DNA of 64,000 nt from Balanoglossus misakiensis (taxonomy: Eukaryota > Animalia > Hemichordata), in NCBI GenBank assembly GCA_040954595.2, contig CM082590.2:7874001-7938000 (forward strand). Direction: 5' to 3'. The notes below the pieces were generated by a model. The model saw only the letters and a list, made by a program, of their open reading frames with translations, was not told the DNA's origin and searched no databases. Both the position numbers and the translations under genes were made by a program. Every line of letters begins with the position of its first letter. Position 1 is the stretch's first letter. Below, piece after piece: positions 1 to 30,205 of the stretch.

Positions 1-417
1 TTATTAATCTTACCTCTAGCTGTTGGTTAAACTGGTGTTTGGCTTCAAAATATGGCCTGTAATGAGACAAGATAAAGCATTTGAGTCAAAGACCTTCAAT
101 TCTCTGTACATAGCTGCAACCTCACCATTGAAAACAATTAGGACAGGCCACTGCTATGGTGAACACCCTCGTTTCTCTGTGCATAGGTGCAACCCCACCA
201 ATGAAAAGCATAGGTTAAAACCAAAAGATGCGCGAACACCTTCATTTCCCTGTACATACAAAAACCTTTTCACCCCCAGTTCTCGTTGTAGCGGTCCAAC
301 TTTTCCCATAGGAAACAATGTATTTGGACCAAACCATGGTAGTGAAAGGGTTAAACCCCACTGTTGCCATGCTGAAGTTGAAAGTTTGAAATACGAGTGA
401 TTGGAAACTCTACATAC

Positions 418-2501
418 CGTGATTTACTGATATTTTTCTTCAGCGACCTCTGCAATTTCTTGACCAGTCTCTCAGCCTCGTCAAATTCAGCTGCTGTTCT
501 CTGATGATCCAATTCAACCACTGCTCTCTCGTGCTCTGCCTCGTTGACCTGAACAGCAGAAAGACTGAAAAATTCACCTGTTTCCCTTTTTAGAGGTCCA
601 ACTTTATCAGAGAAAACAATGGTTTGGACCAAACCATGGCAGTGAAAGGGTTAACTTGTCATGTGAAATTTGTCTCAAACTTCAGATCAACTGTTTTGCA
701 TTATATTTCATTTCCATGACCTCAAAATGACCTTGCATCACTGTACTTCATGTTGGGACAAGAAACGTATAAAACAGAGTCAACCTTGTAATTCAGTTCA
801 TAATTCATTGACAACAGATGCACTTTACAGAGATTGTGTAGAGGTTTGAGTCAACCTGAAACAGAAGTATGATGATGTAAGGTCACGAAGATGGCCTTTA
901 GTTTTTCGAACAATGCTTGCTGCTAACAATTGGCCCACAAGTGTGATGTTTTGCCATTGAAGCTCACCTTCATAGTCGCGTGGTTCAGCATTTCCTGCCA
1001 GTTTGCGTCAAACGTTCTCTTCTCCACAATCAAGCCATGTTCAGCCACATCCACCATCTCCTTGGCAGCAGCCAGCATGCTGTTGGCTCTTTCAAACTTC
1101 AATGCTGCGTCCTGAATGGCTTGCTGAGCCTATAAACAGAAAATACAGTATTATCCCTCAAGTAAGCTCCACTAAACAACATGTTCACATCTAATCAATA
1201 AAAGTTGGTGCATCATTCCCGTGAACTCTACTTTACTCACATTTTTGGCGGTCTGTCTGGCCTCATAATAAGGTCTGGCCTTCTCGATGCAAGAGCCCAA
1301 CTTTTTGCCATGGCAATTCAGGATGTTGGTCGACTCGTTCAGAGATTGTCTGAATGCTGCACGTGCTTCCTAGATAGAAAAAATAATTGAGACTTGGATT
1401 TTAATTTTGCATACTGCTACATTGTTTAGCATTCTAAGACAGCGTGCCATCCATTTCTGCCCCAGTATAGACAAGATCATATGATTTCAATTTTGACTTT
1501 GAACACAATATAGTATGTCACATTAACTAAGAATATGGATTACAGCTAAGGTGCATGTATTTTACTCACATCCAGTTGAACTTCCAGTCGGTTGATTTCA
1601 TCTGTGGCCTTGTTGAGTTGTTCCAATTCTTCCTGAAATCAATCAATCAATCAATCAATATATCAACCAACAAATTTAAATATTGGTTTGGTTCAGTTAT
1701 TGTGTTGACTACTGTCCTGTCCTGTATTTTGAATGATAAGGTCAATCCATGTACCTGCACTACAGAACTCCACTAGGTGTACAACAGTTATATGCAGATC
1801 AGCTTTGCACCCTTGACATTGCTCCCAGGGTCCACAAACAAATATAATTTGCATGATCGAAATTGATCCCATAACTCGGAACAGGAAGCCCTGTCGCGGA
1901 AACAAGGAATTTGTTTCCTTGTACACATGTATTGCACAGCGATCAGAATTACTGTCAAAGGAAAGTTCTGCTTTCTGAATGTTTTACAGACATGTCAGGT
2001 CTGAATCACAAAACCATAAAACAGGACAGAAACAAAACTGATTTTAAATGGAAAACGCACTGATACAAATAGATCACCACATTAATATTATAAGCAATAT
2101 GATACATTTCAATTTGATGACAACCGGCCATTTAAGATAAAGGCTTGTAAGCCATTCATTACATTGGCAATTTAGTCCAGCTAAAATACAGAAATTTAAA
2201 AAAAATGAGGTGGACAAGATTGGTATAATTTGTTTAATGTCACTTATTCGTTAATTTCTCCCATTGTTAATTTCTCTCATTGGCAAACCATCGCAACGAT
2301 CACTCGAGTCCATATCACACCAACGCATAGACCCAGTTTGATTGAGAAATAAGCCCTAACTTCGATTTCCAAGAGTGCGATCGCTTGTTAAGTACGTTAA
2401 ATAAAGACTACCTTTACTCGGGGGTCCAGGGTTTCTTCGTCCGAATAATTATCTCCCTGTTCGTCGCTCTCAGCTGTCGTGTCATCACGAACCTCGGCCA
2501 T
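418..2501 (-). CDS. SH3BP5L: SH3 domain-binding protein 5-like (Rab11 GEF, SH3BP5/parcas family); 5' five exons, gene continues off the left edge
   Basis: Exons 2501-2412, 1632-1570, 1369-1241, 1129-968 and 548-418 have GT-AG boundaries and join in frame: MAEVRDD...LDPRVK-EELEQLNKATDEINRLEVQLD-EARAAFRQSL...LGSCIEKARPYYEARQTAKN-AQQAIQDAALKFERA...WQEMLNHATMK-VNEAEHER...KKNISKSR. The motifs LGSCIEKARPYYEAR and WQEMLNHATxKVNEAE are typical of SH3BP5L. Confidence 0.9.
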
Positions 2502-5642: not shown

Positions 5643-8600
5643 ATGGCTTTCCAGAAATATAAAGACCCATGGGTAAGTGGCCTGTGAACTAAGTTGCGTA
5701 ATACATTTATCACCCCCCCCCCCCCCCCACACACACACACACACACTGATTTAATTGTAACTGGTGTTTCAGAATAATGTCTGCAGTCTACTGAGATAAT
5801 TCATGATTCCAGTGGACTAAAGCATTTGACGGATGCAATTTTTATGTGTACACACATTGTCAAAACTATAAATTGACATATTGTCGATGAAATTTAACAC
5901 TTTAAAGTTCAATCAAGTGCAGTTTCATAAATCAAACTGCTTCAACTTGGCATTTGCTTGCCAATTAATTTGTATGTATTTTATATTCAGGCCTTGATGG
6001 GAGTACAAAATCAATGCATTGATTTGTTTGGTCATTCCGAAAATGTTGAGGGTCGATGAACATTATATTGACCAGTTGCTAATTAGGCTATGGCAATCCG
6101 ATGAAACCAGACTGGAGATGGCATGAAATAAACATATTATTGCCTGATTTTGTACGTTTAATAGGTGGTGCATTTTTGTCTAAATTTCAACTATATTTTC
6201 AAAATAATCTGTATTTTTGTCCGGAAGAAATGCTGTCTTGAAATTTTGCAAAACAAACAATGTCAGTTCTACCTGGGAGTGCCGACACAGGTTTTTGCGT
6301 TTCAGTTTGCATGCTGCCCTTTAGAGATTCTGTTTTATCTTGTTGAAGAATACTCACACAGTCTAGTGTTTCCCCACTATATGATGTCATCATGTTGTCC
6401 ACAGTGTGTCACGGTTTGTCTTCATTATAATGAAGATTTCAATATTTTCCTAGCATATTTTAAGAATATTTAAAAAAATGACAAGTTTTGCTTATTGAAT
6501 GTTACAGGTTCTCACCGATGCTGCATGGGATGGTGACATTGCAAAGATTCAGTCGCTGATAGCTGGTGGATATGATGTCAATAAAGCAAACCGTAGCTGG
6601 GTAAGTGTTTCATATCGACCGAAAGTCATCCCTAGTAACAATAACACAAGGATAACCATTTGTGAAACAGCACAGAATTGGAATTCTAGTATCAGAATTA
6701 TAATTAAGCTATAACCCCCGCTGCAGGTGGGTATACATGAGATTTTGGTACAATTCGAGACATATAGCACGAACCGTCAGGCGAGTGCTATATGGAGCGA
6801 ATTGTACCAAAATCAAGTTAGTTTTATTGCTATTATATTATATCACAACTGATTTTGTGGCATATCAGTGTCATTATCTTAACAAAACAGCGTCAGAAAA
6901 AGAAGTTACGATCGTGAACCAACATGGCGACGATGAATGTAAACACGAGCGGCCCAGGATCGAGCATTAAACATGAAGCAGACGACAAAAAGAGACAAAA
7001 ATGCAACAAGTGATTTTATGTTATTTATTTGGTTTAATCCCACGCGACTGTGGTTTAACTCCACATTTTCTCTGCGGCATGCTAGTTCTGGGGCGCGTTT
7101 TACTTACCACTGCCAGCAGTGGTAAAACAGTATTTTACCATTGCTCTAGTCCAATCAGAATGGTGGACGGTAGCATGATATAATATAATTTCCATTTTAG
7201 CATTACTTAATTGTGATAGGAAATACCTTTGTAAAAAACATCTTTCTTACTGAAACTATCTCAATAGGTATAAATTATCAGATCAATCATTCACTCTCAT
7301 ACATGTACAGTGAATTATCCACTCAACCTCAGAAAAAAATTACCATTATATTATATCATGCTACCGTCCGCAATTCTAATTGGACGAGAGCTCAATCCAG
7401 CGATGCTAAAATAATGCACTGCTGGCAGTGCTAAAACGGGCCCCTGAACTAGCATGCAGCAGAAAAAATGTGCGGTTAAACCACAGTCGCGCGTGTTTAA
7501 ACCAAATAAATGAAACAAAAATACTGTTGAATTAACGGACGTTTTATTTTGGAACTGCTCTGTGGAAATATTTGTCACTTTGCCACGCGCGATGCCCGTC
7601 TTGTCACTTTTTGCCGTGTGCTTCATGTTTAATGCTCGATCCCGGCCGCTCGTGTTTACATTCGTCGTCCCCATGTTGGTTCACGATCGTAATTTCTCTT
7701 TCTGACGCCGTTTCGGAAAGAATATGACACTGATATGCCACAAAAACAATTGTTGATATAATATAATAGCAATAACCCCCGCCTCAGTCGGGTATACACT
7801 CGATTTGGGTACAATTCGCTCCATATAGCACTTGCCTGACGGCTCGTGCTATATGTCTCGAATTGTACCCAAATCTCGCGTATACCCGCCTGCAGCGGGG
7901 GTTATTGCTTAATTATTATGATCATCGGGTTTCAAGTACATTTATTATAATATTTTAAGAGCTGTGCACTGAAGCATTTTTGGAGATCTTCAACAAAAGA
8001 TCAAACACTTGACACACATGCAGTGTATCAAATTGAATGATGATGTCATTTTTATTTCAACTTTAATTAAATGCCTTCATTCCAGATTGATTGCACAGCC
8101 TTGCATGCAGCGTGCAAGGCCGGGGAAGGTACATTGGATGCTGTCAAGGTGTTGATAAGCCATAGTGCAGACGTCAATGCTAAGAGTGCGGTATGTGAAC
8201 TGACTTATTACTTCATTTATAGGGGTAACGAAAGTGGCTACACATGTTGATTGACTTCATGGCCACAGTGGATACTCTGGAAGAATCTTTCATGGACAGT
8301 CATGGATGTCATGAAACATTTCTTTGTTAGAACCATGCATATCAAATGTTTTCTCTAAATTGCTGCAAAGACTGTGCAAATAATCATTTCTTTTGGGTGA
8401 ATGGTCACGACAGAAACAATCAAGAGCTTTATTATATTCTGCATATTAAAATAATTCCAAAAACTAAAACCAGACATTTTATTTGATCGAGAATGGCTGT
8501 TAACACTATTTTTCCTGATTTTATTTCCGATTTTTCGATTGGCTAATCTAAACCCAGCCCCAAGTTTACATTTCCTCAGCCATTGGTTCTTGTACTTGAC

Positions 8601-11600
8601 ATTGACTTTCCTTGTTTACAAGATTGCTTAGAATTCTATGCTATGATAGCAGACACCCCATGGTTAATGATCTTTCATTCCGCAATGTTTAGCTCGGAAC
8701 AGATCCAAGAGGCTGTCGAATTTACGAGAACTCAATGTAAAATCGACAGTTTAAGAGACAACAAGTAGAAGCCATTTCGTTGTGCACTGGCGGAAGGATA
8801 CCCTCGTCATATTTTTTATTGTCTTCATCAAAGACAAATCAGATCAGATTGCACTGCTGATGACTACATATGTTGAAGGCTTTTCCTTCTAATAGGGTCA
8901 ACTACGGAATTTGCTTTTAATGATACTACAGCTAACAGGTGTCCTATAAGGAAAAGCATAAATACCAAATCAGACGACAAAACTGAGACGAACCAATATG
9001 GATACTGTAACAATGAAACTCATCAGTTATCATGCTGAACCCAGACTATTATTAGTACATTCTCTTCTTAACAGGGCAGATTAAGTTTTGGGACGTTCAT
9101 GATTTAATCACCATTATGTTGTTGTGGAAAAAGAACAGGGCACAAAGTTCTGATGACTGCTTCTAGAACAGAACAAAATGTTTTCTTTCAGCCACACAGC
9201 AAGTCCACTTCATTTCACTATGCATTTCCAGGTTGTGGAGTGTCTGTGATTTCATACTGGCCTGTATGGCTTAATGGCACTAAGTGTTCACTCCAGTGTT
9301 GGAAAAATCTGTCAGTTTTTGATCACCTACGATATTGAGAGCCATAGGAATATCGCAGATGACATATTAAAAGAAATACAACATCAAACTAAATTAAAAT
9401 GCCAGTTTAAAGACTCTCTTTAAAGGAAACCTCACATTACATTTCAATTTTTGTGATATTGTTCTCATGCTCCTCCTTCATTACTTACAGGATGGAGACA
9501 CACCTTTGCACTATGCAGCAATGTTTGGTGATGAAGGTCGTGTCAGATTGTTATTGAAACACAAAGCTGATGGTAACATACAAAACAAGGTAAATTCCAC
9601 CATGACTTCTACAGGTTAATTCTAATCAACATATAAACATTTGTTTGTTTGTTTGTTTGTTTGTTTGAAGGAAACCTTGCATTACATTTCAATTTTTGTG
9701 ACAGTGTTCTCATGCTCCTCCTCCATTACTTACAGGGTGGAGACACACCTTTGCACATTGTTGCAGCAAGGTTTGGTGATGAAGGCCGTGTCAGATTGTT
9801 ATTGGAACACAAAGCTGATGGTAACATACAAAACAAGGTAAATTCCACCATGACTTCTGCAGGTTAATTCTAATCAACATATAAACATTTGTTTGTTTGT
9901 TTGTTTGTTTGTTTGTTTGTTTGTTTGTTTGTTTGTTTGAAGGAAACCTTGCATTACATTTCAATTTTTGTGACATTGTTCTCATTCTCCTCCTTCATTA
10001 CTTACAGGATGGAGACACACCTTTACACTTTGCAGCAAGGTTTGGTGATGAAGGCCGTGTCAGATTGTTATTAAAACACAAAGCTGATGGTAACATACAA
10101 AACAAGGTAAATTCCACCATGACTTCTACAGGTTAATTCTAATCAACATATAAACATTTGTTTGTTTGTTTGAAAGAAACCTTGCATTACATTTCAATTT
10201 TTGTGACATTGTTCTCACTCTCCTCCTTCATTACTTACAGGATGGAGACACACCTTTGCACATTGCAGCAAGGGATCGTGATGAAGTCTACGTCAAATTG
10301 TTATTGGAACACAAAGCTGATGGTAACATACAAAACAAGGTAAATTCCACAATGACATCTACAGGTTAATTCTAATCAACATATAAACATTTGTTTGTTT
10401 GTTTGTTTGTTTGTTTGAAGGAAACCTTGCATTACATTTCAATTTTTGTGACATTGTTCTCATTCTCCTCCTTCATTACTTACAGGGTGGAGACACACCT
10501 TTGCACATTGCAGCAAGGGATCGTGATGAAGTCTACGTCAAATTGTTATTGGAACACAAAGCTGATGGTAACATACAAAACAAGGTAAATTCCACAATGA
10601 CATCTACAGGTTCATTCTAATCAACATATAAACATTTGTTTGTTTGTTTGTTTGTTTGAATGAAGGAAACCAAGCTTGCATTGCATTGAATTTTTGTAAC
10701 ATTGTTCTCATTCTCCTCCTTCATTACTTACAGGATGGAAACACACCTTTGCACTCAGCAGCAGCAAGGAAAGGTGATGAAGGCCGTGTCAGATTGTTAT
10801 TGGAACACAAAGCTGATGGTAACATACAAAACAAGGTAAATTCCACCATGACTTCTACAGGTTAATTCTAATCAACATATAAACATTTGTTTGTTTGTTT
10901 GAAGGAAACCTTGCATTACATTTGAATTTTTGTGACATTGTTCTCATTCTCCTCCTTCATTACTTACAGGATGGAGACACACCTTTGCACATTGCAGCAA
11001 GGGATCGTGATGAAGGCTATGTCAGATTGTTATTGAAACACAAAGCTGATGGTAACATACAAAACAAGGTAAATTCCACCATGACTTCTACAGGTTAATT
11101 CTAATCAACATATAAACATTTGTTTGTTTGTTTGTTTGTTTGTTTGTTTGTTTGTTTGTTTGTTTGTTTGTTTGAAGGAAACCTTGCATTACATTTCAAT
11201 TTTTGTGACATTGTTCTCATTCTCCTCCTTCATTACTTACAGGATGGAGACACACCTTTACACTTTGCAGCAAGGTTTGGTGATGAAGGCCGTGTCAGAT
11301 TGTTATTGAAACACAAAGCTGATGGTAACATACAAAACAAGGTAAATTCCACCATGACTTCTACAGGTTAATTCTAATCAACATATAAACATTTGTTTGT
11401 TTGTTTGAAGGAAACCTTGCATTACATTTCAATTTTTGTGACATTGTTCTCATTCTCCTCCTTCATTACTTACAGGATGAAGACACACCTTTACACTTTG
11501 CAGCAAGGTTTGGTGATGAAGGCCGTGTCAGATTGTTATTGAAACACAAAGCTGATGGTAACATACAAAACAAGGTAAATTCCACCATGACTTCTACAGG

Positions 11601-14600
11601 TTAATTCTAATCAACATATAAACATTTGTTTGTTTGTTTGAAGGAAACCTTGCATTACATTTCAATTTTTGTGACATTGTTCTCACTCTCCTCCTTCATT
11701 ACTTACAGGATGGAGACACACCTTTGCACATTGCAGCAAGGGATCGTGATGAAGTCTACGTCAAATTGTTATTGGAACACAAAGCTGATGGTAACATACA
11801 AAACAAGGTAAATTCCACAATGACATCTACAGGTTCATTCTAATCAACATATAAACATTTGTTTGTTTGTTTGTTTGTTTGAATGAAGGAAACCAAGCTT
11901 GCATTGCATTGAATTTTTGTAACATTGTTCTCATTCTCCTCCTTCATTACTTACAGGATGGAAACACACCTTTGCACTCAGCAGCAGCAAGGAAAGGTGA
12001 TGAAGGCCGTGTCAGATTGTTATTAAAACACAAAGCTGATGGTAACATACAAAACAAGGTAAATTCCACCATGACTTCTACAGGTTAATTCTAATCAACA
12101 AATAAACATTTGTTTGTTTGTTTGAAGGAAACCTTGCATTACATTTCAATTTTTGTGACATTGTTCTCATGCTCCTCCTCCATTACTTACAGGGTGGAGA
12201 CACACCTTTGCACATTGTTGCAGCAAGGTTTGGTGATGAAGGCCGTGTCAGATTGTTATTGGAACACAAAGCTGATGGTAACATACAAAACAAGGTAAAT
12301 TCCACCATGACTTCTACAGGTTAATTCTAATCAACATATAAACATTTGTTTGTTTGTTTGTTTGTTTGTTTGTTTGTTTGTTTGTTTGTTTGTTTGTTTG
12401 TTTGTTTGTTTGTTTGAAGGAAACCTTGCATTACATTTCAATTTTGTGACAGTGTTCTCATTCTCCTCCTTCATTACTTACAGAATGGAGACACACCTTT
12501 GCACTCTGCAGCAAGGTTTGGTGATGAAGGCCGTGTCAGATTGTTATTGGAACACAAAGCTGATGTGACCATACAAAACAAGGTAAATACCACCATGACT
12601 TCTACAGGTTAATTCTAATCAACATATAAACATTTGTTTGGTTGTTTGTTTGTTCAAGGAAACCCCACATTACATTTTAATTTTTGTGACATTGTTCTCA
12701 TGCTCCTCCTTTATTACTTACAGGATGGAGACACACCTTTGCACTCAGCAGCAGCAAGGAAAGGTGATGAAGGCTGTGTCAGATTGTTATTGAAACACAA
12801 AGCTGATGTGACTATACAAAACAAGGTAAATATCAACATGACTTCTACAGGTTAATTCTAATCAACATATAAACATTTGTGTGTTTGTTTGTTTTGTTTA
12901 TTTAAGGAGACCTCACAGTACATTTGAATTTTTGTGACATTGTTCTCATGCTCCTCCTTCATTGCTTACAGATTGGAGACACACCTTTGCACATTGCAGC
13001 AAGGTATGGTGATGAAGGCCGTGTTAGATTGTTATTGGAACACAAAGCTGATGCTAATATACAAAACAAGGTAAATACCAACCTGACTTCTACAAGTTCA
13101 TGCTAATCAACACAATCCTAAACATTTGTTTGTTTGTTTGTTTGTTTGTTTGTTTGTTTAAGGAAACCTTGCATTACATTTGAATTTTTGTGACATTGTT
13201 CTCACTCTCCTCCTTCATTACTTACAGGATGGAGACACACCTTTGCACATTGCAGCAAGGGATCGTGATGAAGTCTACGTCAAATTGTTATTGGAACACA
13301 AAGCTGATGGTAACATACAAAACAAGGTAAATTCCACCATGACTTCTACAGGTTAATTCTAATCAACATATAAACATTTGTTTGTTTGTTTGAAGGAAAC
13401 CTTGCATTACATTTCAATTTTTGTGACATTGTTCTCATTCTCCTCCTTCATTACTTACAGGGTGGAGACACACCTTTGCACATTGTTGCAGCAAGGTTTG
13501 GTGATGAAGGCCGTGTCAGATTGTTATTGAAACACAAAGCTGATGTGACTATACAAAACAAGGTAAATATCAACATGACTTCTACAGGTTAATTCTAATC
13601 AACATATAAACATTTGTTTGTTTGTTTGAAGGAAACCTTGCATTACATTTCAATTTTTGTGACATTGTTCTCATTCTCCTCCTTCATTACTTACAGGATG
13701 GAGACACACCTTTGCACATTGCAGCAAGGGATCGTGATGAAGTCTACGTCAAATTGTTATTGGAACACAAAGCTGATGTTAACATACAAAACAAGGTAAA
13801 TACCAACCTGACTTCTACAAGTTCATGCTAATCAACACAATCCTAAACATTTGTTTGTTTGTTTGTTTGTTTAAGGAAACCTAACATTACATTTGAATTT
13901 TTGTGACATTGATCTTATGCTCCTCCTTCATTACTTACAGGATGGAGACACACCTTTGCACTATGCAGCAAGGTATGGTGATGAAGGCCATGTCAGATTG
14001 TTATTGGAACACAAAGCTGATGTGACCATACAAAACAAGGTAAATACCAACATGACTTCTACAGGTTAATGGATAGGAATATCTATTAATATGTTTCTTT
14101 GTTTGATAATGCTATGGATCCTTATTTTAAAGAAGATACAGTGACAGTTAGGCTTTGTTTTAGTTTATCTTTAAATTTATCTCTCAACAAACAGAGAACC
14201 TATTTAGATTAGTGAAACACCACAGTTTTGGCAAGAAATTACATACTCACGAGGAAACTGCCTTACTAAAAATGTAATACCATTCTGTGACTAGTTCTGT
14301 AACTCTGATAATGATTCTAGTAACTTTGTTGGTGCGCTGTTTATGCTTTTGTTTCTTGTATAGGATGGCAACACAGCACTCCACATAGCAGCAATGGCCA
14401 ACAGGTCTTCGGGGGATTATGGAAAAGTTGTGAAACTGCTGTTACAATATGGAGCTAATATTGACTGCAAAAATAAGGCAATATTTTCTATTTTCCAATA
14501 TTTCATTCCATGACACTCTACCATGTTTTCTGATCAACTTTCATTTTGTTATGTAAGTTTCTTCACAATCATTTTCTTTGAAATGATAGGCAAGTTTATA

Positions 14601-17600
14601 TGTGCAATTTATCAAACTATTTCAACAAAACAGTCATAAAGCAAAATAATTTTGATAAAGCATATTCACCATATACATGTATCTTTTGTTAAATTGTAGG
14701 GCATGTACCAATAAGCTCGAGTTAAACTAAAACTACTTCCAACATGGTCAGTTATAAAACTGTTGACTCATGACAATATGCCAATCCTAACACAGCTAAT
14801 TTCTTACATTTCTATTTAAACATCTCTGTGTGTTATCTTTTTTCTTTAAATCTGTTTTCTGAAATATTAAGGAGGCAGGGATCTAGTATAAATTTATTTT
14901 TGATGATTTAATCATTGGACGATTATAACTCTTTAAATTTATTTTGATCTCTCAATACATTAATGTTCATTTCCCTTGTGATGGTATCATTCAAAATCAT
15001 CTGACAATTGTAAAAGATTCAATGTCACAATACCTGTTGGCTATTCTACTACATTTTAAATGGTTTTGATTTCAATATAAATTGTGTGCATTGAGGTTTT
15101 GTTTATGATGTCACATCACGTTGTCATTCTTTTTGCATAAAATTTGAAATAGGATTGACTTTAACACTATTTTGGAATTTATCAACTTTCAAATTTTTCA
15201 GGTTATCAGGTACATTATTGCTACTATTATCTTATCAATATCAACATCATAAATCATTGTTAATTCTTTTTATCCTAATAAAACCTAGACCGGAAAGACA
15301 CCACTTGATGTCGCAAGTAGGTCTGTTAGGAATGTGCTATTGGATTACATGAGGGTGAGTGTAATTTTTCTTTGTCATGAATTTTAATAACCTGAAATGT
15401 TCACATTCCAATGCATCCTATTCCTGAATATCGGCATAAACGGTACAACTTATAAGTTAACGTGGTGTCACCCTCAACTGTACTTTCCAAACCTACAAAT
15501 ACAATATAGATGTATTTTTATGTTTTCTTTATTCAACAAGAAACAAAGTGAGTTCAATGACCTGATGAAGGAACCAGGCAAGAAATATGATATTCTTAAG
15601 TTGTTCTTCGCTGGATATGGTGGAGTTGGTAAGACTACACTGGTGAAGTCACTTCAGAGGGTACCGGTATGTTTAAGCAATAACCTCTGTCACAGGCGGG
15701 TATACGCGAGATTTGGGTACAATTCGAGACGAATTGTACCCAAATCGAGTGTGTACCCAACTGAGGCGGGGGTTATTGCTATTATATTATATCAACAATT
15801 GATTTTGTGGCATATCAGTGTCATTTTCTTAACGAAACGGTGTCAGAAAGAGAAATTACGATCGTGAACCAACACGCGACTGTGGTTTAATCGCACATCT
15901 TCCCTGCTGCATGCTAGTTCAGGGGCCTGTTTTACCACTGTCAGCCGCTGTAAAACTGTATTTTACCTTCGCTGGATTGAGCTTTCGTCCAATCAGAATG
16001 GCAGACGGTAGCATGGTATATTTAATATAATAATATTTATTGATTTGTGTATCAGCTCTAGCTATAGTAAGCCAAAACAATACAGGTTGTTTACAAAATG
16101 CATATGCAGGTATAGACTAGGATTTCATGCTCAATTCTGTATACTGGATGAAATGATGTGCCAGAATAAAGTATGTATTTGTGTAAAATCATCACATGAA
16201 AGTCAAATTGTCAAACACGTATTAAATTTATTACTCCAAGACTCCTTGACAGTGTTGACCTCATTAAATATGCACATATCTAATTATATAAATTGGGTGC
16301 ATTGAGGTTTTGTTTATGATGTCACGTTGTCATTCTTTTTGCATAAAATTTGAAATAGGATTGACTTTAACACTATTTTGGAATTTATCAACTTTCAAAT
16401 TTTTCAGGTTATCAGGTACATTATTGCTACTATTATCTTATTAATGTCAACATCATAAATCATTGTTAATTCTTTTTATCCTAATAAAACCTAGACCGGA
16501 AAGACACCACTTGATGTCGCAAGTAGGTCTGTTAGGAATGTGCTATTAGATTACATGTGGGTGAGTGTAATTTTTCTTTGTCATGAATTTTAATAACCTG
16601 AAATGTGCACATTCCGATGCATCCTATTCCTGAATATCGACATAAACGGTACAACTTAACGTGGTGTCACCCTTAACTGTACTTTCCAAACCTACAAATA
16701 CAATATAGATGTATTTTTATGTTTTCTTTATTCAACAAGAAACGAGATGAGTTCAATGACCTGATGAAGGAACCAGGCAAGAAATGTGACATTCATAAGT
16801 TGTTCTTCGCTTGTGGAAAGACTGACCTATAAGCAAACAAAAAGAGCTAAAGCAGTAGTTTTTGTCGGAAATAGATTCAGGGCTTGAAATTTATTGTTTT
16901 TCTCGGTAGCCCAGTGGGTACATTTGTTATGGCTGGTAGCCAATATTTCGTCCACCCCCCCCCCCCCCCAACTCTTTTCATGCTGGCTACTACAAAAAGT
17001 GGTTGTAAAATGGATTTCCTAACGAAATTTGTGACCGGTAAAAATTTATGAGTGACCAGACGTCCTTTCGTCTCACTTGTAGCTCATGTAAATAATGTAA
17101 GTACCTTAGCAACCGAAATAAACCTGTGAAATTTTCTATAAAAGCTTTATACTATTTGCAACATTGCACTTTGTTAGTGTTCTTTCAGGAGTGTTTGCAA
17201 TCTGATAAAATCAGATGTAAGGAAGGGCGACATCTTTTACTTACTCCGTATGGTTTTCTTATGCTGTTGCCTCATATCACACCACGTAAGTAAAAGACGT
17301 CGCCGTACCCTACATCTGATTTTAATCAAACTTGTGTGTTTGTAAAACTTGTAATGAGAAGTTACAACCAGTAACGAGCAAAAATTTGCAGTAATGATTA
17401 ATAGCGACCTAGAAATAGGCGGAACGAGTAAATAATATGAGGTTCCCGCAAAGTATGCACAAGGACATTTGCGCAGCGTATCGCCTGACGCATAGCGGAG
17501 TGTTGTTTGTGGAAAGACTGACCTATAAGCAAACAAAATTATATAGAAATCAGCTGAACCGGACTTCCCCTTTAATGTTACGCACCTCAAAATAAAAGGT

Positions 17601-20600
17601 TGTCTGATCATGTTGAAATTAATACTGATGATACTAACATTTAATCTATGGAATAAAAATGGGGGTTCAACCAGCTGGATTTTAGGAAAAAGTGCCCGCT
17701 ATGTAGCACCTCTTTCAGCTTTGCCAGTGCTCGTAGATCTTTGTAAAATGGCCTAGCTCATACATAAGTATTTTGGGAGGTTCATCATATTTTTTCACCA
17801 TTATAGAAACTAAACTTACTGAATATTTTATTTTAGAGCAATTTTGAGATTTTTTCTTGTTCAGTATGATAATCGCATATCAATTATTATATTATACCAG
17901 TATATTGATGGTGTAAATCACGCTATTTTATTGGTCGAGACACGACACGTGACTGTGATATATTCGTCACATACCACAGTCATATATCACGCAAAACTCA
18001 TAGTCAAAGAAAATGCCTATTTAAAATGTTTTATGCAAAGTTTCAATATACTGGTATAATATAATAGCAATCAAACACCCCCAGCCATGGTATACCACTC
18101 GATTTTGACCAGTTCTGGTCAAAATCTCATGGTATACCATGGCTGGGGTGTTTTATTGCTTAAATATAATACAACTGTTAAATTAAATACAGAATTGGTT
18201 TTGGAAACCTTTCTTGCTTGTTGACATATATATCGTGTTGACATTGTTTAATTTTGTTTTGTATTTTTTTCAATGAACAGAGGAATAAGATAATACAGTT
18301 TTTCACATTCATCTGGAATTTTTTGTCATTACCGTTTCAACCAGAAAATGTGAGTGTTTGTTAATTTATTCTTGTGTATCTTCTATAGTTTTTTGTCCAT
18401 TGCTGTAAAACACAATTTTAGCTCGTATTTAGCATGTGGATGAGGGTGCATGTGGGATACAGGTGTTCTTCACAAAAGAAAACACGAGGTTGCAATGGTG
18501 GTATACACAAGAGCAGAAAACTAAATTAATCAAATAACTAAAATTGTTTTCTTTCACTTCCCCTTATTAAAGAGTGAAGAAACAGCCCTGGAATCTGAAG
18601 AAAGTGAACACATTCCCACACCTGGTATTGATGTCCAAAGTGTTCATATTCCTGACGTAGGAAAGTGCAGTGTTTGGGATTTTGCAGGCCAGCCTGAGTA
18701 TTATGTCACTCATAACATGTTTCTGGGAGCACCCAATGCTGTCTCCATATTGATGTTCAAAGCTACAGACGAGAATGGTCAACTCAACACCTTTGAAGAT
18801 GTGTTCCCACAGGTAAGAATCTTCACAGTAAATTGACTTAACTTGAGACTGTATATCCTTATGTTTTGCATTATTTATCACTTTCCAAGTTTTAACTGTA
18901 GGAATGGAAAATATTGCTGTTTGAGAATTCATGGCTTTTTGATAGAGTTGCAGATATTTCTATAATTGTCTACTGCAGAACCAACGTGCGATTGTTGTTC
19001 AATAATTATTTGGCATTGTTTATCTCATACATAGCTCTGCATATTACCTGAATCATGAGAAATCTTATATTGAGATTCAATTCATGATCTATTTGACTCA
19101 AAATTAATGCTTTTCATGATACAAATATTCTCATTTGTAGATTTTGTTTTGGTTGCGGTTTCTGAAAGGAACAACCCACATGGACAGGTATTCATTTGAT
19201 CAGCCAGGTGAAGGATACAAGAAACCAGTAGTGATATTGGTTGCAAGTCGAGCTGATCAGTTGAAGAGAATCGATATGGCTCTAGGTGGGTGTTGTCAGC
19301 TCATTCACATACCATACAATGTCAAGCTCATAATATCATAATGTAACATGTGTTGTTTAACTGTTGACAAATTGATCGATAGTGGGAAGAACATGTTTAA
19401 TTGTTCGAAATGTCAAAGTTTGAAAAAAAAACAGCTATTACCAGCTAGCTGTCATTAAGAAAAAGATTCACAGCTGAACTTTATGCCTTTCTTTCTGCAA
19501 ATCGAGTTGTTAATATGCAGCAATTAGAATTGCGTGTTATAATTTCACAGCTCGCCATATGCTGAAGGAAGTTCTGACAAGAGCACAGGAAATGTTTCAA
19601 GATTATTTAGACATAGTGAATAACATATTTCTGGTGAATTGCCATAATTTTAAAGACAGAAAAATGAAGAAACTCCGTGCCTGTTTACATCAGAAAAAGG
19701 TAACAATTTTTTCGCTGCAGTCAATATTGCCTCTGAATTGTTCTACCTTTATAAACACACAAACACATTATAATTCACTTCAGTTACCGTACAGTTACAA
19801 GATTCAGTTTCATAGTTCCTCCTTGAAAAAATGCAAAGACCCAAAGTGTTGGCAACATACTACCAATGTATGTTTGATGACCCTTGCTTAAGCACCACTT
19901 GCAAATGATTAGGTTACATATTTATCCAATTTTAGGAGCCACCAAAATGTGAACTGTTTCAAAATGTAGCTTGAAGGAAAATGTGGTAACATAACATAGT
20001 CACATTGGACAAATATGTGATTACCTCCTTGTGTTTTATTCATCACTTGTGAGACTTGCTTGACAAGTTAATGCTGTTATTTAATATTTCTTATCAATTT
20101 TTAGACAGTAAAAACACTTCCAAGCGTGTGTGCCAAGATAATGGAAAAGAAGAGGGAATTATATGATGAGGGTTGGTATCTTAAAAAGAGAAGATTTTAC
20201 AAGTGGGAGTGCCCTGCTCTTTATTGGACAAAATATGTGGCGAAAATCAAGGAAATATACCCCACGATTGATGAAAGTTTCTTACAAAAGGCCACCAACT
20301 ATCTGCATGACATCGGAGAGGTCAGTAACACGAAACACCATATTGCTTATCCATTCTCTTTCAGTACAAATACTAGGCTGAGTGAATGTGATATTTCCGT
20401 CAGTTACAAATTATTTTCTCTTCAGAAATCTGCAATGGCATTTTATAATGTATTATTGTCTCAATGTATTATTGTAATTATTTGTGGTTTTGGGTTCCCA
20501 GCATTTCTTTAGTCATAATAATATCGCAAAATTACCAAACATTATTTTAAGATGACACTGAACCCTGCAGGCGTAGCCTTGGGGACTTTAAGATTAAACT

Positions 20601-23151
20601 ATTCAAATTGGCATACATTAATGTGCAACATGAAAATTTTCATGTATCAAAATGTTTCTTTTCTTTTGTATAGCTTTTGTTTGTGAAGAAGTCATCTCCT
20701 GAAAGAGAAGATGTCGTGGTATTGGATCCAAACTGGTTGTGTTACAGGATATTTGGACCAATGTTGGCTACCCCCTTATTTGCAGAATTCAGTTCCAGAT
20801 TTGACAGAAATTGTTTTCAGACGATGGAGAAGATAAAAGATGTACTTAGTGAAGGTGTAAACATCAATCTTCTCATCGACCTTCTAGAGGATTTTGAGCT
20901 TCTCTGTCCAGCACATATCACAAAGACTGGGGAGAAACTTTTCTTCATACCAGGGCTTCAAGACGATGATATGCCTAAAGATCAATGGAAATTGAATCGC
21001 ATGAAGACAATCTACCGTGGAATGCGGTTTGAATGCCATGATGAATCAGATTCCTTTACGGCAGGCTTCTTCCCAAGATTACAGACCCGTCTATATAAGC
21101 ATTTCACCAACCTTGGCCAGCCGCCCAGTGGCATATGGAGAAATGGTATCAAAGTGTGCCATGATGTTGAAGGTCTTGTCTTTATGACCAATGGCAGAAG
21201 AGCAGTCAATGTCTGCGTACGAGTTGAAGACAAGAAGTTGATTGGTGAGGGCTACAAGCTTCTTGAGATGGTTTCCAAAGAAGTACATGATGTCTTCTTA
21301 ATCGCATGTCCAGGCAACAGGATGAATCAGCTTATCCTGAGTGCAGATTCTCTTGCAAACCACGACATGGAACAAGTTGGGTTTTACACTCTTGATGACG
21401 TGCTACGTGCAGAAGGCATGGGGAGGAAAGTGTACAACGAGGAAGTTGGTAAAGCAGAAGATGTTTGTGACCTGCTTTGTCAAGGTCATGACACAACAAT
21501 CTTACTGAAGAAGTGGAAAAGCTGTGATATCAAATGGATGCTTGAAGAAACCAGAAAGACACTGACTGAGAGAATGGACATTCAACGTGCACCATCTTTG
21601 CACTACGCCTGCATGGCCGAACATATGGGAATCGTCTACCAGGATGTCAGGGCACTTGAAGAGATTGCGGGTCGGGCAGGCAAACCAGTTACAGAATACA
21701 TCTTTGTAGAGTGGTGTCGTAGATGCGCAGGGAAGAAACAACTTCGACGAGGACAAGACACCACTACAGCTGCAGAATTCCCGACCACTTCTCATGACAC
21801 ACATGATGTTGATAGTGGTTTTGCAACGATGTCACCGTCATCACAACCACCAGACTCAAGCGTCCAATTCCAACGAGGACAAGACACCACTACAGCTGCA
21901 GAATTCCTGACCACTTCTCATGACACACATGATGTTGATAGTGGTTTTGCAACGATGTCACCGTCATCACAACAACCAGGCCCAAGCGTCCAATTCCAAC
22001 GAGGACAAGACACCACTACAGCTGCAGAATTCCTGACCACTTCTCATGACACACATGATGTTGATAGTGGTTTTGCAACGATGTCACCATCATCACAACC
22101 ACCAGACTCAAGCGTCCAATTCCAACGAGGAAAAGACACCACTACAGCTGCAGAATTCCCAACCACTTCTCATGACACACATGATGTTGATAGTGGTTTG
22201 GCAACGATGTCACCGTCATCACAACCACCAGACTCAAGCGTCCAATTCCAACGAGGACAAGACACCACTACAGCTGCAGAATTCCTGACCACTTCTCATG
22301 ACACACATGATGTTGATAGTGGTTTTGCAACGATGTCACCGTCATCACAACAACCAGGCCCAAGCGTCCAATTCCAACGAGGACAAGACACCACTACAGC
22401 TGCAGAATTCCTGACCACTTCTCATGACACACATGATGTTGATAGTGGTTTTGCAACGATGTCACCATCATCACAACCACCAGACTCAAGCGTCCAATTC
22501 CAACGAGGAAAAGACACCACTACAGCTGCAGAATTCCCAACCACTTCTCATGACACACATGATGTTGATAGTGGTTTGGCAACGATGTCACCGTCATCAC
22601 AACCACCAGACTCAAGCGTCCAATTCCGACGAGGACAAGACACCACTACAGCTGCAGAATTCCCGGCCACTTCTCATGACACACATGATGTTGATAGTGG
22701 TTTTGCAACGATGTCACCATCATCACAACCACCAGACTCAAGCGTCCAATTCCAACGAGGAAAAGACACCACTACAGCTGCAGAATTCCTGACCACTTCT
22801 CATGACACACATAATGTTGATAGTGGTTTGGCAACGATGTCACCATCATCACAACCACCAGACTCAAGCGTCCAATTCCAACGAGGACAAGACACCACTA
22901 CAGCTGCAGGTGCCAGTGCCATCTCATATGACATAGATGCCACCGAAGATTGTCTTGCTGAAATGCACACATCATCATCCTCACAAGTTTCAAGGGCCCA
23001 GAAAACAACAAAACCGAAGTATCCACATGTAACGGGACCTGTCTTCGAAAGCAACTTTGAGAATCTGTTGGCAATATTCTACACCATGGGAAGAGACGAC
23101 ATGGTCGGATTGATTGAACAGATGTTCGAGAAATTGGAAGAACGCAGATAG
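5643..23151 (+). CDS. Ankyrin-repeat Roc-COR death-domain protein (ROCO family, DAPK1-like without kinase), about 1,900 aa if all exons are used
   Basis: Proposed exons: 5643-5672 (MAFQKYKDPW), 6508-6600, 8086-8190, 19 ANK exons within 9491-14039, 14364-14477 (GC donor), 15289-15354, 15541-15660 (P-loop GYGGVGKTT), 18281-18349, 18573-18812 (G2 TPGID, G3 WDFAGQPEYYVTH), 19141-19285 (G4-like VASRAD), 19551-19699, 20105-20320, 20674-23151 (COR: VVLDPNWLC, FFPRLQ, WRNGI; split death domain). All junctions are phase-compatible. Confidence 0.88.
6704..7186 (+). mobile_element. Non-autonomous repeat family with sub-terminal hairpin (CryptonV-like by recollection), copy A
   Basis: Begins ttaagctataacccccg and ends ccaatcagaatggtggacggtagcatgatata; homologous to copies at 7347-7912 (inverted) and 15673-16024. 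Confidence 0.7.
7347..7912 (-). mobile_element. Same family, copy B (inverted relative to A), with intact hairpin of about 140 bp at 7768-7909
   Basis: agcaataacccccg...gggtacaattcg...cgaattgtaccc...cgggggttattgct palindrome; the remainder is the reverse complement of 6840-7186. Confidence 0.75.
9420..14070 (+). repeat. Tandem array of 19 intron+ankyrin-exon cassettes (about 230-290 bp each)
   Basis: Exons 9491-9589, 9736-9837, 10008-10106, 10241-10339, 10486-10584, 10734-10835, 10970-11068, 11243-11341, 11476-11574, 11709-11807, 11957-12058, 12193-12294, 12484-12582, 12724-12825, 12972-13070, 13228-13326, 13461-13562, 13697-13795 and 13941-14039. Each is 99 or 102 bp, with cttacag| and AAG|gtaaat boundaries. 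Introns are near-identical except for a variable (TTTG)n tract. Confidence 0.95.
15673..16024 (+). mobile_element. Same family, copy C (internally deleted), 12 bp downstream of the P-loop exon donor
   Basis: ttaagcaataacc...ggggttattgctattatattatatcaacaattg...ccaatcagaatggcagacggtagcatgg. Confidence 0.7.
16290..16811 (+). pseudogene. Partial intragenic duplication of about 15080-15611 (last ANK-cap exon plus 5' part of the P-loop exon)
   Basis: Near-identical copy with exon 16495-16560 (TGKTPLDVASRSVRNVLLDYMW, intact AG/GT) and an exon from 16740 (KRDEFNDLMKEPGKKCDIHKLFFA) that breaks just before the P-loop and reads CGKTDL-stop. Confidence 0.85.
17887..18163 (-). mobile_element. Related hairpin-ended element
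   Basis: ataatagcaatcaaacacccccagccatggtatacc...ggtataccatggctggggtgttttattgcttaa palindrome at 18065-18160, the same terminal architecture as copies A-C. Confidence 0.55.
21748..22908 (+). repeat. Coding minisatellite, 126 bp (42 aa) x 9 plus a degenerate tenth unit
   Basis: Unit RG(Q/K)DTTTAAEF(P/L)TTSHDTHDVDSG(F/L)ATMSPSSQ(PPDS/QPGP)SVQFQ starts at 21748, 21874 ... 22882, an exact 126-bp period. Units 2-4 recur as units 5-7. Confidence 0.97.
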
Positions 23152-23671
23152 ACTGAATGCAGAACAGATGTTCGAGACATCGGAAGAACGCAGATAGACT
23201 GAATGCAGAACAGATGTTCGAGACATCGGAAGAACGCAGATAGACTGAATGCAGAACAGATGTTCGAGAAATTGGAAGAACGCAGATAGACTGAATGCAG
23301 AACAGATGTTCGAGACATCGGAAGAACGCAGATAGACTGAATGCAGAACAGATGTTCGAGACATCGGAAGAACGCAGATAGACTGAATGCAGAACAGATG
23401 TTCGAGACATCGGAAGAACGCAGATAGACTGAATGCAGAACAGATGTTCGAGACATCGGAAGAACGCAGATAGACTGAATGCAGAACAGATGTTCGAGAA
23501 ATTGGAAGAACGCAGATAGACTGAATGCAGAACAGATGTTCGAGACATTGGAAGAACGCAGATAGACTGAATGCAGAACAGATGTTCGAGACATCGGAAG
23601 AACGCAGATAGACTGAATGCAGAACAGATGTTCGAGACATTGGAAGAACGCAGATAGACTGAATGCAGAAC
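23116..23671 (+). repeat. 46-bp tandem repeat x 12 spanning the ROCO stop codon into the 3' UTR
   Basis: Unit gaacagatgttcgaga(c/a)at(c/t)ggaagaacgcagatagactgaatgca, with starts at 23116, 23162 ... The first unit encodes EQMFEKLEERR-TAG. Confidence 0.97.
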
Positions 23672-24901: not shown

Positions 24902-27383
24902 CTAGTATGTCCAATTTTGGGGGAACCACTTGCCCATACTGACTGCAGAGTTATTTATGTGTATGATCTCGTTTTCGCGTACTTCCATGTCTGAGCTGGA
25001 GCCAGTGTTGGAAAAATCAAGTTTTACAGGGAATGGCTGGAAAGATGGAGATGGTGTGATTCCCAATGCACTGGAAGTATCTGAAGGTCTCTTTTGAAGA
25101 TGCGCTGCTTGGTCACTGTTTCCCGTGCACACATTTTGATGACGCGACACTCTGTCACCACTTTCTGTGCACACATTTTGATGATGCGACATTCTGTCAC
25201 CACTTTCTGTGCACACATTTTGATGATGAGACATTCTGTCACTATTTCTCGTGTAGACATCGCCCTGGCTGGAATTCTGTCCTGTCGACGCACTTTCATC
25301 CACAGTCATATACACCGGGCCATCCAAACTGCCCCGAACAGTTTTCTTCGGGAAATTCACAGTTCCGATCACGGGGGTGATACCAAGTTCATGCTCAGTT
25401 TTCTCAGAATCCCGACTGCCTTCATTCTCTGCAACAGTAATGTGTCCTAAGTGCCACAGGAAATTGATAATTATTGGTATATCTGAAAGAGGAAAAAAAA
25501 CAGAAAAAAACTTGCTGATCTTATTGAAAACAAGTGACCTAGCATTGACATAGCATACCTGTGATATGACAATATTCCGTGAATTCTGTCTAAACTGAAA
25601 CCTGTCTAATTTTAAGGAGAGTGCAAATTCAACGCATTGATTCGAATAGGCAACATCTGGGAATGTAGCTCTTCTGTGGTTATATCGACCAGTCACCAAA
25701 GCTACCTGGTCTGATAAAACCAGCCTGGCGAGGCTTGTATAAAAATATTATTGTCTGAATACATCGCGTGTGGGCCCTTGCGACTGGAGACCATTTGCTC
25801 TCATGCATCAGGAGATGGCTCCAGTGCTTGAGCCCATAAACCTATGTATTCAGGCGATAATGTATAATACTTACCACCTTCAGACAGTGTGTGACTGCTG
25901 AACCTTCGCACACATTTCTGGCAATATGCGTCTAGATGCTGTCCGTAGTCCCTTAGATTAATGGCTCCTTGCTGTGTGTGCCCTGAAACAAGGCAAAAAA
26001 GTTAATGGCTACCAACTGTAACACTGACACATTCATCAATTTTAGATGATCAGAAAAGAATGGAAGTTTAAAAGATCTATCTAATCTGGGAACCTGTCTA
26101 AACCGAACGTTTTTTTCTGTCCCTTTGTCATAGAAGCATGTTAAAGAACCTCTATATACCGGACGCCTCTGTAAACCGAACAGTCCATTCAGTGTTCAGT
26201 TTAGACAGGTTTGACTGTACCTTTAAACAACTAGTTTACCTTCTCTGTGTGTGTGATTAAATACTCCTGGAACTTCTCCATCAGTAGTGGGCTTGGTAAC
26301 TTCATGTCCACTGTTAGTGTTACAGTTTGATGTACAGTCTTCTGATTGTCTCCGTCGGTAAAACCGAGCCTCGAAATTCTTCGAATCGACTCTTTTCGTT
26401 TGCTTTGCATGAAGGCAGTAGTTTGTGTATTCTACAGAGCAGTTGGCTTCTTTGGAGATCTCTCTCAGTTTGTTCCCGAGTGTGTTCTTTCCAACGGGCG
26501 AGTTGTCATACCATTCGCCATACTCTCCATCTTCTTCGACTGTCTTCTTTGGTCGTTGCCAGAATGCAGAACAGAACGGGTTCAAGTGGTTTAAATACCG
26601 TTCAAATGATCTGACCGCGCAGTAAGGGTTGCCCGGGTCCTCGTAAATCCTGTCCGAGCCCTCGCTCTTGCAATCACCATGGAAACTTAACTTCTTACTC
26701 ACATTGCTGGTGCTGCTTCGAAACTTACGAAAGGCAACGTACTTTCTTCCCTTCTGATCAACGTAGATGTCAAAATCACACTTTGCGAGATCTCGGAGAC
26801 TGTCACGACCGATGATGTTCCTGAGATTCACCAAAATGTCAATGAACACTTTATTTTGAAGTCCGCGGGGGGTATTTTGATCCGTCGCAGATGAGCACAA
26901 TATTTTCGCCATATCCGCTTCGGTGACATACTTTGGCTGGTTTACTTTAGGGGATGCCCGTCGTTCATTTCTCAGAGTCGCTAGCACGGCTGCAAAAACC
27001 TCGTTGGCTGGTCTGAACGACTCGTTTTTTATGATATCCACACCGCGTATTTTCCTGAAGTGATGCTGAAGGCCGTACCTTATTGTAATAATTGATTTGA
27101 TGGCATATTTCTGTCCGTTGCTTTGGCGAACACCAGCGTAGAAGTGCCGCAGAAATGTACACAAGTCTTTACAAGGCTTCTGCTCGACATCAGCCAACGA
27201 TGTACCTGAAGCGGCACAGTACTGCTTGAAGATATTAACGGCGCACCTGATTATATTCTTCGTCTTCTGAGAATGTCTATTCTCTACAATTTGGTGAAGC
27301 TGCTCTTCCGTTACTGACACAAAACGCGAGTTATCAACTGAATGATCGCCCAAACCTGGATTTAACATTGGTACAGCCGCCAT
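24902..27383 (-). CDS. DUF3504-domain protein (KIAA1958/QRICH1/ZMYM/KCTD1-like), derived from a Crypton tyrosine recombinase, apparently catalytically dead
   Basis: The 27383-26240 exon has family motifs SRFVSVTEEQL, LRHFYAGVRQSNGQKY, IRYGLQHHF, TPRGLQNKVF, CAVRSFERYL, FWQRPK and WYDNSPVGKNTLG. It splices in phase 1 to 25982-25875 and then to 25482-24902 (low-complexity tail). The 3' end is less certain. Confidence 0.8.
25125..25250 (-). repeat. Coding 42-bp (14 aa) tandem repeat x about 3 in the DUF3504 gene tail
   Basis: DRMSHHQNVCTESG repeated; gtgcacacattttgatga recurs at 25125, 25167 and 25209. Confidence 0.85.
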
Positions 27384-27977
27384 ATTTGATCTGGGCGCAT
27401 GCGTATATTGTCACAATTACGTCATTTGTTATGGGAGAGTACCCTTTTACGACATTTGAGACTTACGCCAGCCAGTGGTCACTCTTACAGCAGACCTTCG
27501 TTTTCTCCAGGAATAACTTTGTTCAGGAAACGCCCACCATTTTTCAGGCTAGTGGATTTAACTGACAACATGTATATATGGGAATTTCCTGCAACAATTG
27601 TTTTGTCAGAGTCTTCCTAAATAAGACTACCTGATCAAAATATAAAGCTTGTCCAATAAACCATTTTCCAAACTCCCCAAGGCCCTAAGATCTCGGGACT
27701 ACCAGACAGTTTATATGATAATAGAAATATATATCGCCAGCGATATACGTTTCTCTTGAAATATAATCACCACAATACTACAGTTCAATATTTTCATAGT
27801 AAATATCGATTTTTATTTCTATTATAACATGCATTGGAAATCCTCTTTTAGTTATCAAATAATACACAGATAGTTCCCCATACAAATATTACAGAAATTA
27901 AACAGCGTAGAAAAGGTTGTTGGAACGATATACTATTTTTTTTTTCACTGGTGGACTATCAATAATTGCAATACTGG

Positions 27978-29797: not shown

Positions 29798-30205
29798 GAT
29801 TTTGCTGTAGGAAACACCGATTTCTCCTAGACCTTGTGCAGGAATCGACGGGTCATTTGAGTGTAAAAAAGGTCGCTGACCAATGTAAATAATAGCCGTG
29901 TCACGTAAGGCCAACCAGGCGGTGAACTTACATTGGAAAGTTCCAATATTACATAGGGGTTGTCGCTTTCATGTGTTCATTCGGATTTCGTCGTTCAGTC
30001 GTTTTTATCGTGCATAAACCTACATGAAACATTAGATATATACAGACTATAAGTAATCAGTAATGTCGTTGTGAGAAACACGATCTATAAAGTTTCCTAA
30101 TTAATTATGCATTGTGTTCTCACCCTAATTAGATTTGTAGACAGCGCTCGAAGGTAATCCAGGGTCATTGGAGTACGCCCCCAACGACTGAAGTCTAATT
30201 TCAAA
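29798..30205. promoter_or_regulatory. Putative bidirectional promoter between HSD11B1L-like and MICOS13
   Basis: Divergent start codons are about 408 bp apart. A YY1-like aaaatggcg overlaps the MICOS13 start, and CCAAT/ATTGG boxes occur at about 29880, 29932 and 29943. Confidence 0.6.

Follow-up and report, generated by a model that had tools for sequence, protein, structure and literature searches.

Does a tandem array of one-exon ankyrin cassettes in a hemichordate ROCO gene diversify a recognition surface, or does it turn over without such a role? The array lies in a 64,000-nucleotide (nt) stretch of the Balanoglossus misakiensis genome (contig CM082590.2, positions 7,874,001 to 7,938,000), hereafter the window, all positions below being counted from its first letter, and an earlier note on this DNA had proposed it as a candidate diversifying recognition system. 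On balance we lean towards reading the array as the repeat region of an ankyrin-Roc-COR-death-domain gene, in which recombination keeps the exon-plus-intron units alike and mixes them and, acting in the germline, would diversify the surface with which a predicted innate or non-self sensor binds. Germline diversification of such a putative sensor is, in itself, likely.

An array of recombining ankyrin cassettes

The array extends over positions 9419-14070 of the forward strand (Tandem Repeats Finder [TRF]: period 245 nt, 18.8 copies), and an exon parse of 9300-14200 resolved 19 cassette exons in 9491-14039, each preceded by AG and followed by GTAAAT, and each stop-free, in phase 0 and of a length divisible by three (99 nt in 13 exons and 102 nt in six). 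These exons comprise 16 distinct DNA sequences and encode 15 distinct peptides, in agreement with the earlier count. Every exon encodes a single ankyrin repeat, and both cassettes that were scanned matched Pfam Ank (E = 6e-10 and 2e-11). The repeats share 83% mean pairwise and 96% best-match identity at the protein level, whereas the units of exon plus flank are, on average, 91% identical in DNA and all 19 are mutually different. Thus, the description of canonically spliced cassettes with homogenised introns was accurate, and with 19 of 19 exons in phase 0 and bounded by the same splice borders, cassettes can indeed be added, lost or swapped without a frameshift. Two finer points of that description have to be qualified. 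Intron lengths do vary (134-189 nt), but mainly through a (TTTG)n microsatellite of 2-18 units, together with a few 1- and 4-nt indels, rather than freely. The exonic indels were correctly counted as 3 nt only, but they consist of a single additional codon after residue 8, present in two forms in three cassettes each, and, representing one or two events, carry little weight as evidence of selection. A blastn search of the window returned 19 cassette matches, all in the array, and no extra, inverted or inactive cassettes outside it.

Recombination among the cassettes is evident from the four-gamete test, in which 168 of the 595 pairs formed by 35 informative sites were incompatible (minimum number of recombination events [Rm], 12), and from a permutation test akin to the pairwise homoplasy index (PHI; p = 1e-4); a test based on distance correlation did not reach significance (p = 0.09). 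Block duplications are indicated by closely matching units spaced 5-6 (units 3/8/9, 4/10, 5/10 and 6/11) or 10 (2/12) positions apart, and exons e7, e14, e17 and e18 are internal mosaics of blocks of different types. Hence, two processes alter the array, the duplication of whole units and gene conversion inside exons, of which the second was not part of the earlier picture of whole-cassette swaps.

Within the window, 20 of the 33 cassette residues are invariant, and residues 12, 8, 17, 1 and 28 are the most variable. Synonymous variants are present in the TPLH core, and multi-base differences cluster in codons 8 and 12, beside an invariant AA pair. In a designed ankyrin library, the randomised positions are 2, 3, 5, 10, 13 and 33 (PMC4308713). 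These binding positions correspond to exon residues 33, 1, 3, 8, 11 and 31, respectively. Consensus position 14 (exon residue 12) we take to be randomised in other libraries of designed ankyrin repeat proteins (DARPins). When the binding-face set includes position 14, its nonsynonymous diversity (piN) is 0.19 against 0.06 for the framework, with synonymous diversity (piS) at 0.08-0.10 (permutation p = 0.037), and the face carries 12 alleles at 18 sites, compared with 32 at 119 sites of the intron (p = 0.012). Diversity in the cassette exons does not fall short of that in the introns; in cassettes 1-12, the values are 0.080 and 0.046, respectively (p = 0.05). The excess of variation at the binding face is suggestive.

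A Roc-COR switch followed by a split death domain

The array belongs to a gene model of 31 exons on the forward strand (5643-23151; 1,907 residues), read, like its start, from the sequence alone, with no internal stop and no frameshift; 29 of its introns are GT-AG and one is GC-AG. A predicted first coding exon (5643-5672; ATG, 10 codons and a phase-0 GT donor) is followed by an exon for an N-terminal cap-like ankyrin half-repeat (6508-6600), by itself without a Pfam match, and by a unique ankyrin exon of 35 residues (8086-8190; Pfam Ank, E = 9e-8). Downstream of the cassettes come a unique last ankyrin exon of 38 residues (14364-14477) and the 22-residue C-cap exon of the ankyrin stack (15289-15354). 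The last ankyrin exon, which is skippable in frame, ends at the non-canonical GC donor at 14478, and read-through would reach a stop after 11 codons; inefficient splicing could thus give an ankyrin-only product.

The Roc domain begins with an exon carrying the P-loop (G1; GxxxxGKT) at 15541-15660 and continues through four exons (18281-18349, 18573-18812, 19141-19285 and 19551-19699) with G2-, G3- and G4-like motifs, all of which are intact. Pfam Roc scored 27.2 bits on exon 18573-18812 (cut-off, 27), and the COR domain, which directly follows Roc in exon 20105-20320 and the opening portion of the final exon (from 20674; domain extent, 20105-21500), was recognised by COR-B at 30 bits (cut-off, 27). 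The short COR-A exon had no Pfam match when scanned by itself, and in relatives COR-A also falls below its cut-off, with two exceptions. The Roc-COR GTPase of the earlier note is supported by both Pfam matches, the G1-G4 motifs and the adjacency of the two domains. The switch is Roc-COR, a weak NB-ARC match being confined to the P-loop exon and below the cut-off. No kinase lies N-terminal to the ankyrins in the model, which, from its inferred start, begins with ankyrins; short exons could lie further upstream. The product is a ROCO protein, and not DAPK1 (no kinase), a leucine-rich-repeat (LRR) ROCO or a NOD-like receptor (NLR). Around the C-cap and P-loop exons, a 538-nt segment is locally duplicated at 95% identity (15075-15612 and 16286-16811, same strand); the second copy, outside the open model, contains an intact cap exon (16495-16560) and a broken-off P-loop exon that stops short of the lysine.

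The earlier note's death-domain output agrees with the predicted fold of the C-terminal region, but the note makes no mention of a long repeat that interrupts the domain. Helices 1-4 (21508-21747) and helices 5-6 with the stop codon (23011-23151) are separated by an in-frame 126-nt tandem repeat (TRF, 21747-22909; 9.2 copies) in the helix 4-5 loop. The insert of about 430 residues contains nine 42-residue Ser/Thr-rich repeats, which lengthen the stretch between the helix-4 tryptophan and the helix-5 motif to 445 residues, compared with 25-43 in 11 named relatives; among the 10 closest representatives checked, the loop measures 24-63 residues in eight, was read as 118 in one and was unmatched in another. 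By sequence, the death domain is weak: the best matches in PDB, MyD88 among them, had E values of 0.05-0.12, Pfam Death was weak in four of 11 rows, the window's own rows not being among these, and a Foldseek search gave no match at E 0.001. The predicted model of a Ptychodera relative (P0004; predicted local distance difference test [pLDDT], 85) matches death domains (Z = 12.2; root-mean-square deviation [rmsd], 1.8). In the model of the window's split domain, both halves are predicted with pLDDT of 73-94 and the insert with low values, and the halves form one death domain (Z = 11.7; rmsd, 1.8; 93 of 93 residues aligned to 3mop_K), the top 15 structure matches all being death-fold proteins. 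Thus, the split domain is predicted to refold around the repeat insert and the output module to survive. The Pfam tRNA-synt_1c_C2 family also matched the 42-residue repeat, but no stretch of the match passed, and we discounted it as an artefact of the repetition. Another tandem repeat (46 nt, 12 copies, 97% matches; TRF, 23116-23671) runs from the last codons into the 3' flank, so that the stop codon lies inside its first unit.

Homogenised arrays in related proteins

All seven matches of the first protein search were hemichordate models named 'DAPK1-like', an automatic database label, or ankyrin, with 34-49% identity over the COR region; further searches added paralogues from Ptychodera, Saccoglossus and amphioxus. 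The 17 named animal relatives come from Glandiceps (P0001), Ptychodera (P0002, P0004 and P0008-P0011), Saccoglossus (P0003, P0005-P0007, P0013 and P0014) and Branchiostoma (P0012 and P0015-P0017), and a kinase family is listed for none of them. In a tree of the window model and 16 of these relatives (P0008, which has no P-loop, and the plant rows P0018-P0020 being left out), the window Roc-COR forms a long separate branch in a clade (starred) of 13 hemichordate-type rows, its position inside this clade not being fixed by the tree; the placement is in keeping with an acorn worm as the source.

A motif scan of 162 fetched proteins identified 27 with at least four tandem ankyrins, in six of which the best-match repeat identity is at least 80%, each with a different consensus, for instance, Glandiceps P0001 (15 repeats, 85%) and Ptychodera P0009 (4 repeats, 93%). 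These homogenised arrays, known at the protein level, are scattered over the tree and thus arise repeatedly in the family. The window array is the most homogeneous long array seen (best-match identity, 96%). Per-position variability in the window correlates with that in the independent array of Glandiceps P0001 (rho = 0.45, p = 0.008), and Ptychodera P0004 carries a cassette-like LLEHKA repeat type. The Branchiostoma lanceolatum protein P0012 combines similar ankyrins and Roc-COR with CARD and glycosyltransferase domains in place of the death domain, which suggests exchangeable output modules.

Cassettes in sample S1

An independent view of the cassettes came from a sample (S1) whose species is that of the window or one very close to it, in the form of three sets of DNA contigs (word shares with the window, 0.43, 0.34 and 0.06). 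In unique introns, S1 differs from the window at three positions in 407 nt and at none in 308 nt, but several window alleles (e.g., at sites 13912 and 14074) are absent from its contigs, so that S1 is probably another individual or haplotype. Summed contig depths, which are not copy numbers and serve as a rough guide only, were 51-84 for a unique intron, approximately 1,300-1,600 for the last ankyrin and P-loop exons and 129,000-145,000 for the cassette (X1), the lowest site total for a single cassette being 16,403 (X1) and 28,763 (X2); long low-depth contigs had depths of 19-37, and one 126-nt contig alone had 1,473. Taken roughly, these values suggest that the S1 genome would contain at least several close paralogues, with cassettes numbering in the hundreds rather than the 19 of the window, and so support paralogues of the kind for which the earlier note had advised a search.

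The composition of this pool differs from that of the locus. Lysine at residue 23 is found in eight of the 19 window cassettes and in about 0.5% in S1, and the majority cassette type of S1 is not that of the locus, which fits locus-by-locus homogenisation. Variants at a frequency of at least 2% occur in S1 at codons 1, 3, 5, 7, 8, 11-14, 17, 28 and 29. Position 2 of codon 12, a binding-face site, shows all four bases, and position 2 of codon 8 shows three; the only indel listed is one 3-nt insertion. The contigs join cassettes head to tail, and some also hold cassette pieces with unrelated flanks. We set aside an exon-versus-intron contrast computed from the S1 depths (face, 0.14; intron, 0.002-0.010): at conserved sites, adding up depths exaggerates the commonest allele, which biases the contrast.

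Comparison with known repeat-shuffling systems

Genes with one repeat per exon and exon shuffling are known from the brown alga Ectocarpus, whose LRR-ROCO proteins have a proposed, unproven immune role (Zambounis 2012, PMC3341825). Alternative splicing of the repeat exons has been reported for these genes, whereas somatic recombinants are stated not to have been reported even in brown algae (Teng 2024, PMC11378527). The hemichordate gene shares with them the Roc-COR core, one repeat per in-phase exon (here, in 19 of 19), membership of a multigene family and shuffling, and the earlier proposal of an ankyrin-based animal analogue was, in this respect, well founded. It differs in the repeat itself (an ankyrin of 99 or 102 nt in phase 0 rather than an LRR of 72 nt in phase 2), in its occurrence in an animal, in the C-terminal death domain, in the homogenisation of whole introns and in having, within the window, no counterpart of the inverted or inactive reservoir exons of the algal genes.

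In fungi, ankyrin repeats with high internal conservation (HIC; 85% over 100 residues) are polymorphic in number and under positive selection at their concave face (Dyrka 2014, PMC4986451), and in Podospora, het-d and het-e encode NLRs with high-identity repeats, non-self recognition being proven for het genes (PMC12222747). More generally, concerted repeats are enriched in host-pathogen functions (PMC5100051). The cassette array resembles the fungal repeats in its high internal conservation (83% mean and 96% best-match identity in protein, 91% in DNA), recombination and concerted evolution among near-identical repeats, variable sites on or near the concave face, and sensor-switch-effector layout. 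Unlike in the fungal proteins, however, the switch is a Roc GTPase rather than a STAND (signal transduction ATPase with numerous domains; NACHT or NB-ARC) ATPase, the order is reversed, with the sensor N-terminal, and the repeat unit includes an intron. Whereas the splicing of algal repeat exons and the recognition function of fungal het genes have been documented, the array is known from genomic DNA alone.

Among animal proteins, the ankyrin-Roc-COR-death-fold architecture is that of the DAPK1 group and of the kinase-less 'DAPK1-like' models, although DAPK1 has an N-terminal calmodulin-regulated kinase, which is missing from this gene model, and the named 'DAPK1-like' relatives have the short death-domain loop described above. 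Expansions of repeat-switch-death-fold proteins are also found in other invertebrates, namely, ROCO proteins with death folds in Trichoplax (Civiero 2014, PMC4104024) and an LRR-NLR with highly similar repeats in the sea urchin (Hibino 2006, as cited in PMC12222747), with no exon-cassette ankyrin array described in the available text on either, and prokaryotic AP-GTPase-COR proteins with fast-evolving repeats have been proposed as conflict systems (PMC8195603). Literature searches directed at ankyrin-ROCO exon arrays of hemichordates or other animals, most subscription journals lying outside them, turned up no account of an animal ROCO built from ankyrin exon cassettes. We regard the locus as the counterpart, in an animal and with ankyrins, of ROCO shuffling in brown algae and of the high-identity repeats of fungal NLRs.

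Diversification or turnover

The most serious challenge to germline diversification is near-neutral, minisatellite-like turnover in a working gene, with selection only removing changes that break folding and with surface variation that has no recognition role; we judge it somewhat unlikely, but a number of results count in its favour or, at least, against germline diversification. The overall piN/piS of the cassettes, 0.92-0.95, is close to 1 and also expected under neutrality, and across all 19 units the exon-intron contrast is not significant (0.092 versus 0.067, p = 0.12). With the published position set alone, the face test is not significant either (piN of 0.13 versus 0.08, p = 0.23; against the intron, p = 0.13), position 14, which lies outside this set, being the most variable site, and since ankyrins of every kind tolerate substitution at the face positions, these would also be expected to vary under relaxed constraint. 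Per-position variability is not significantly shared with Ptychodera P0004 (p = 0.15). Phase 0 characterises 29 of the 30 introns of the model, including most of those in Roc-COR, and the symmetry of the cassettes is thus a property of the whole gene. The 126-nt and 46-nt repeats and the 538-nt duplicate indicate that the locus duplicates readily whatever the function, and the coding 126-nt repeat, a control from the same gene, has a piN/piS of 1.14 at lower diversity. Neutral turnover fits less well with multi-base differences that cluster at codons 8 and 12, next to the unchanging AA pair, with four bases at a single site in S1, with exons at least as diverse as introns and with the recurrence across the family of homogenised arrays with similar variable sites. 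Diversifying selection is thus weakly supported, the face excess being significant with position 14 counted but not with the published set.

Diversity could also reside mainly within the individual, through combinatorial skipping of 19 identically bordered exons, in a Dscam-like or brown-algal-like manner, or through somatic rearrangement. Any subset of cassettes would remain in frame, given the same splice sites and phase in each, and alternative splicing of the Ectocarpus repeat exons as well as the large cassette pool in S1 are consistent with this scheme, but identical strong splice sites fit constitutive inclusion equally well, the three introns folded (of 18) revealed no unusual RNA structure (z = -1.40, -0.36 and +0.61), the window holds no spare cassettes, and somatic recombinants are, by the published account, unreported even in brown algae, all of which makes it improbable. 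Marginally less probable still is that the locus represents a recently decaying or silent young duplicate with freely expanding repeats, or an array inflated by the assembly. Decay would agree with the repeat-split death domain, the GC donor, the broken P-loop duplicate and the absence of the locus's own alleles at 13912, 14074 and other sites in S1; against it, the 31 exons contain no stop or frameshift, the G1-G4 motifs are intact, the halves of the death domain are predicted to come together in one fold and the helix 4-5 loop varies in length among relatives as well. Assembly expansion, which the earlier note had named as a possible undoing of its proposal, is unlikely because all 19 units differ and the independent S1 contigs hold cassettes head to tail.

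Under germline diversification, unequal crossing-over, helped by long identity and by the microsatellite in every intron, would add and remove whole repeats, and short conversion tracts would recombine residues 1-3, 8, 11-13, 16-19, 23 and 28-29. Variation would fall on residues 8 and 12, located at the concave face or next to it, with the framework retained, and crossing-over together with conversion would generate alleles and paralogues with differing binding faces. From what is known of related families, ligand binding to the ankyrin solenoid is predicted to shift the nucleotide and dimer state of Roc-COR, a general ROCO behaviour (PMC6337361), and to cluster the death domain, which would recruit a death-fold adaptor, with a cell-death or NF-kB-type output. 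Should this be true, hemichordates would have come independently, and by a third route, to an intracellular sensor that varies and that relies on an LRRK2/DAPK1-type switch, besides the repeat-shuffling receptors known from brown algae (LRR-ROCO) and fungi (HIC NLRs), and kinase-less invertebrate ROCO proteins would gain a testable function. A bolder extension, which we consider doubtful, is a genome-wide library of several hundred one-exon ankyrin cassettes across Roc-COR-death-domain genes, recombined within and between loci, possibly with skipping or somatic reshuffling, that would provide a non-chordate deuterostome with a DARPin-like intracellular recognition repertoire.

Genomic surroundings

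Two introns of the gene (6697-7919 and 15673-16020) contain a long palindromic, very high-copy element resembling a miniature inverted-repeat transposable element. S1 contigs join 15663 to 16068 without it, and this insertion is thus either polymorphic or missing from a paralogue. The neighbours of the gene are ordinary single genes, with no further ROCO gene noticed among them or elsewhere in the window: an SH3BP5-like gene (350-2500, reverse strand), a short-chain dehydrogenase (27978-29800, reverse strand) and an L7Ae-domain gene (46000-56300, forward strand), presumably SECISBP2-like. Located 3 kb from the ROCO gene is an intact open reading frame of 395 residues (26223-27410, reverse strand) with matches to DUF3504, QRICH1 and a phage-integrase SAM-like domain, all below cut-off; we take it to be Crypton-like, and nothing ties it to the array. 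Near the end of the window, a satellite at 63183-63820 has nested periods of 27, 85 and 144 nt.

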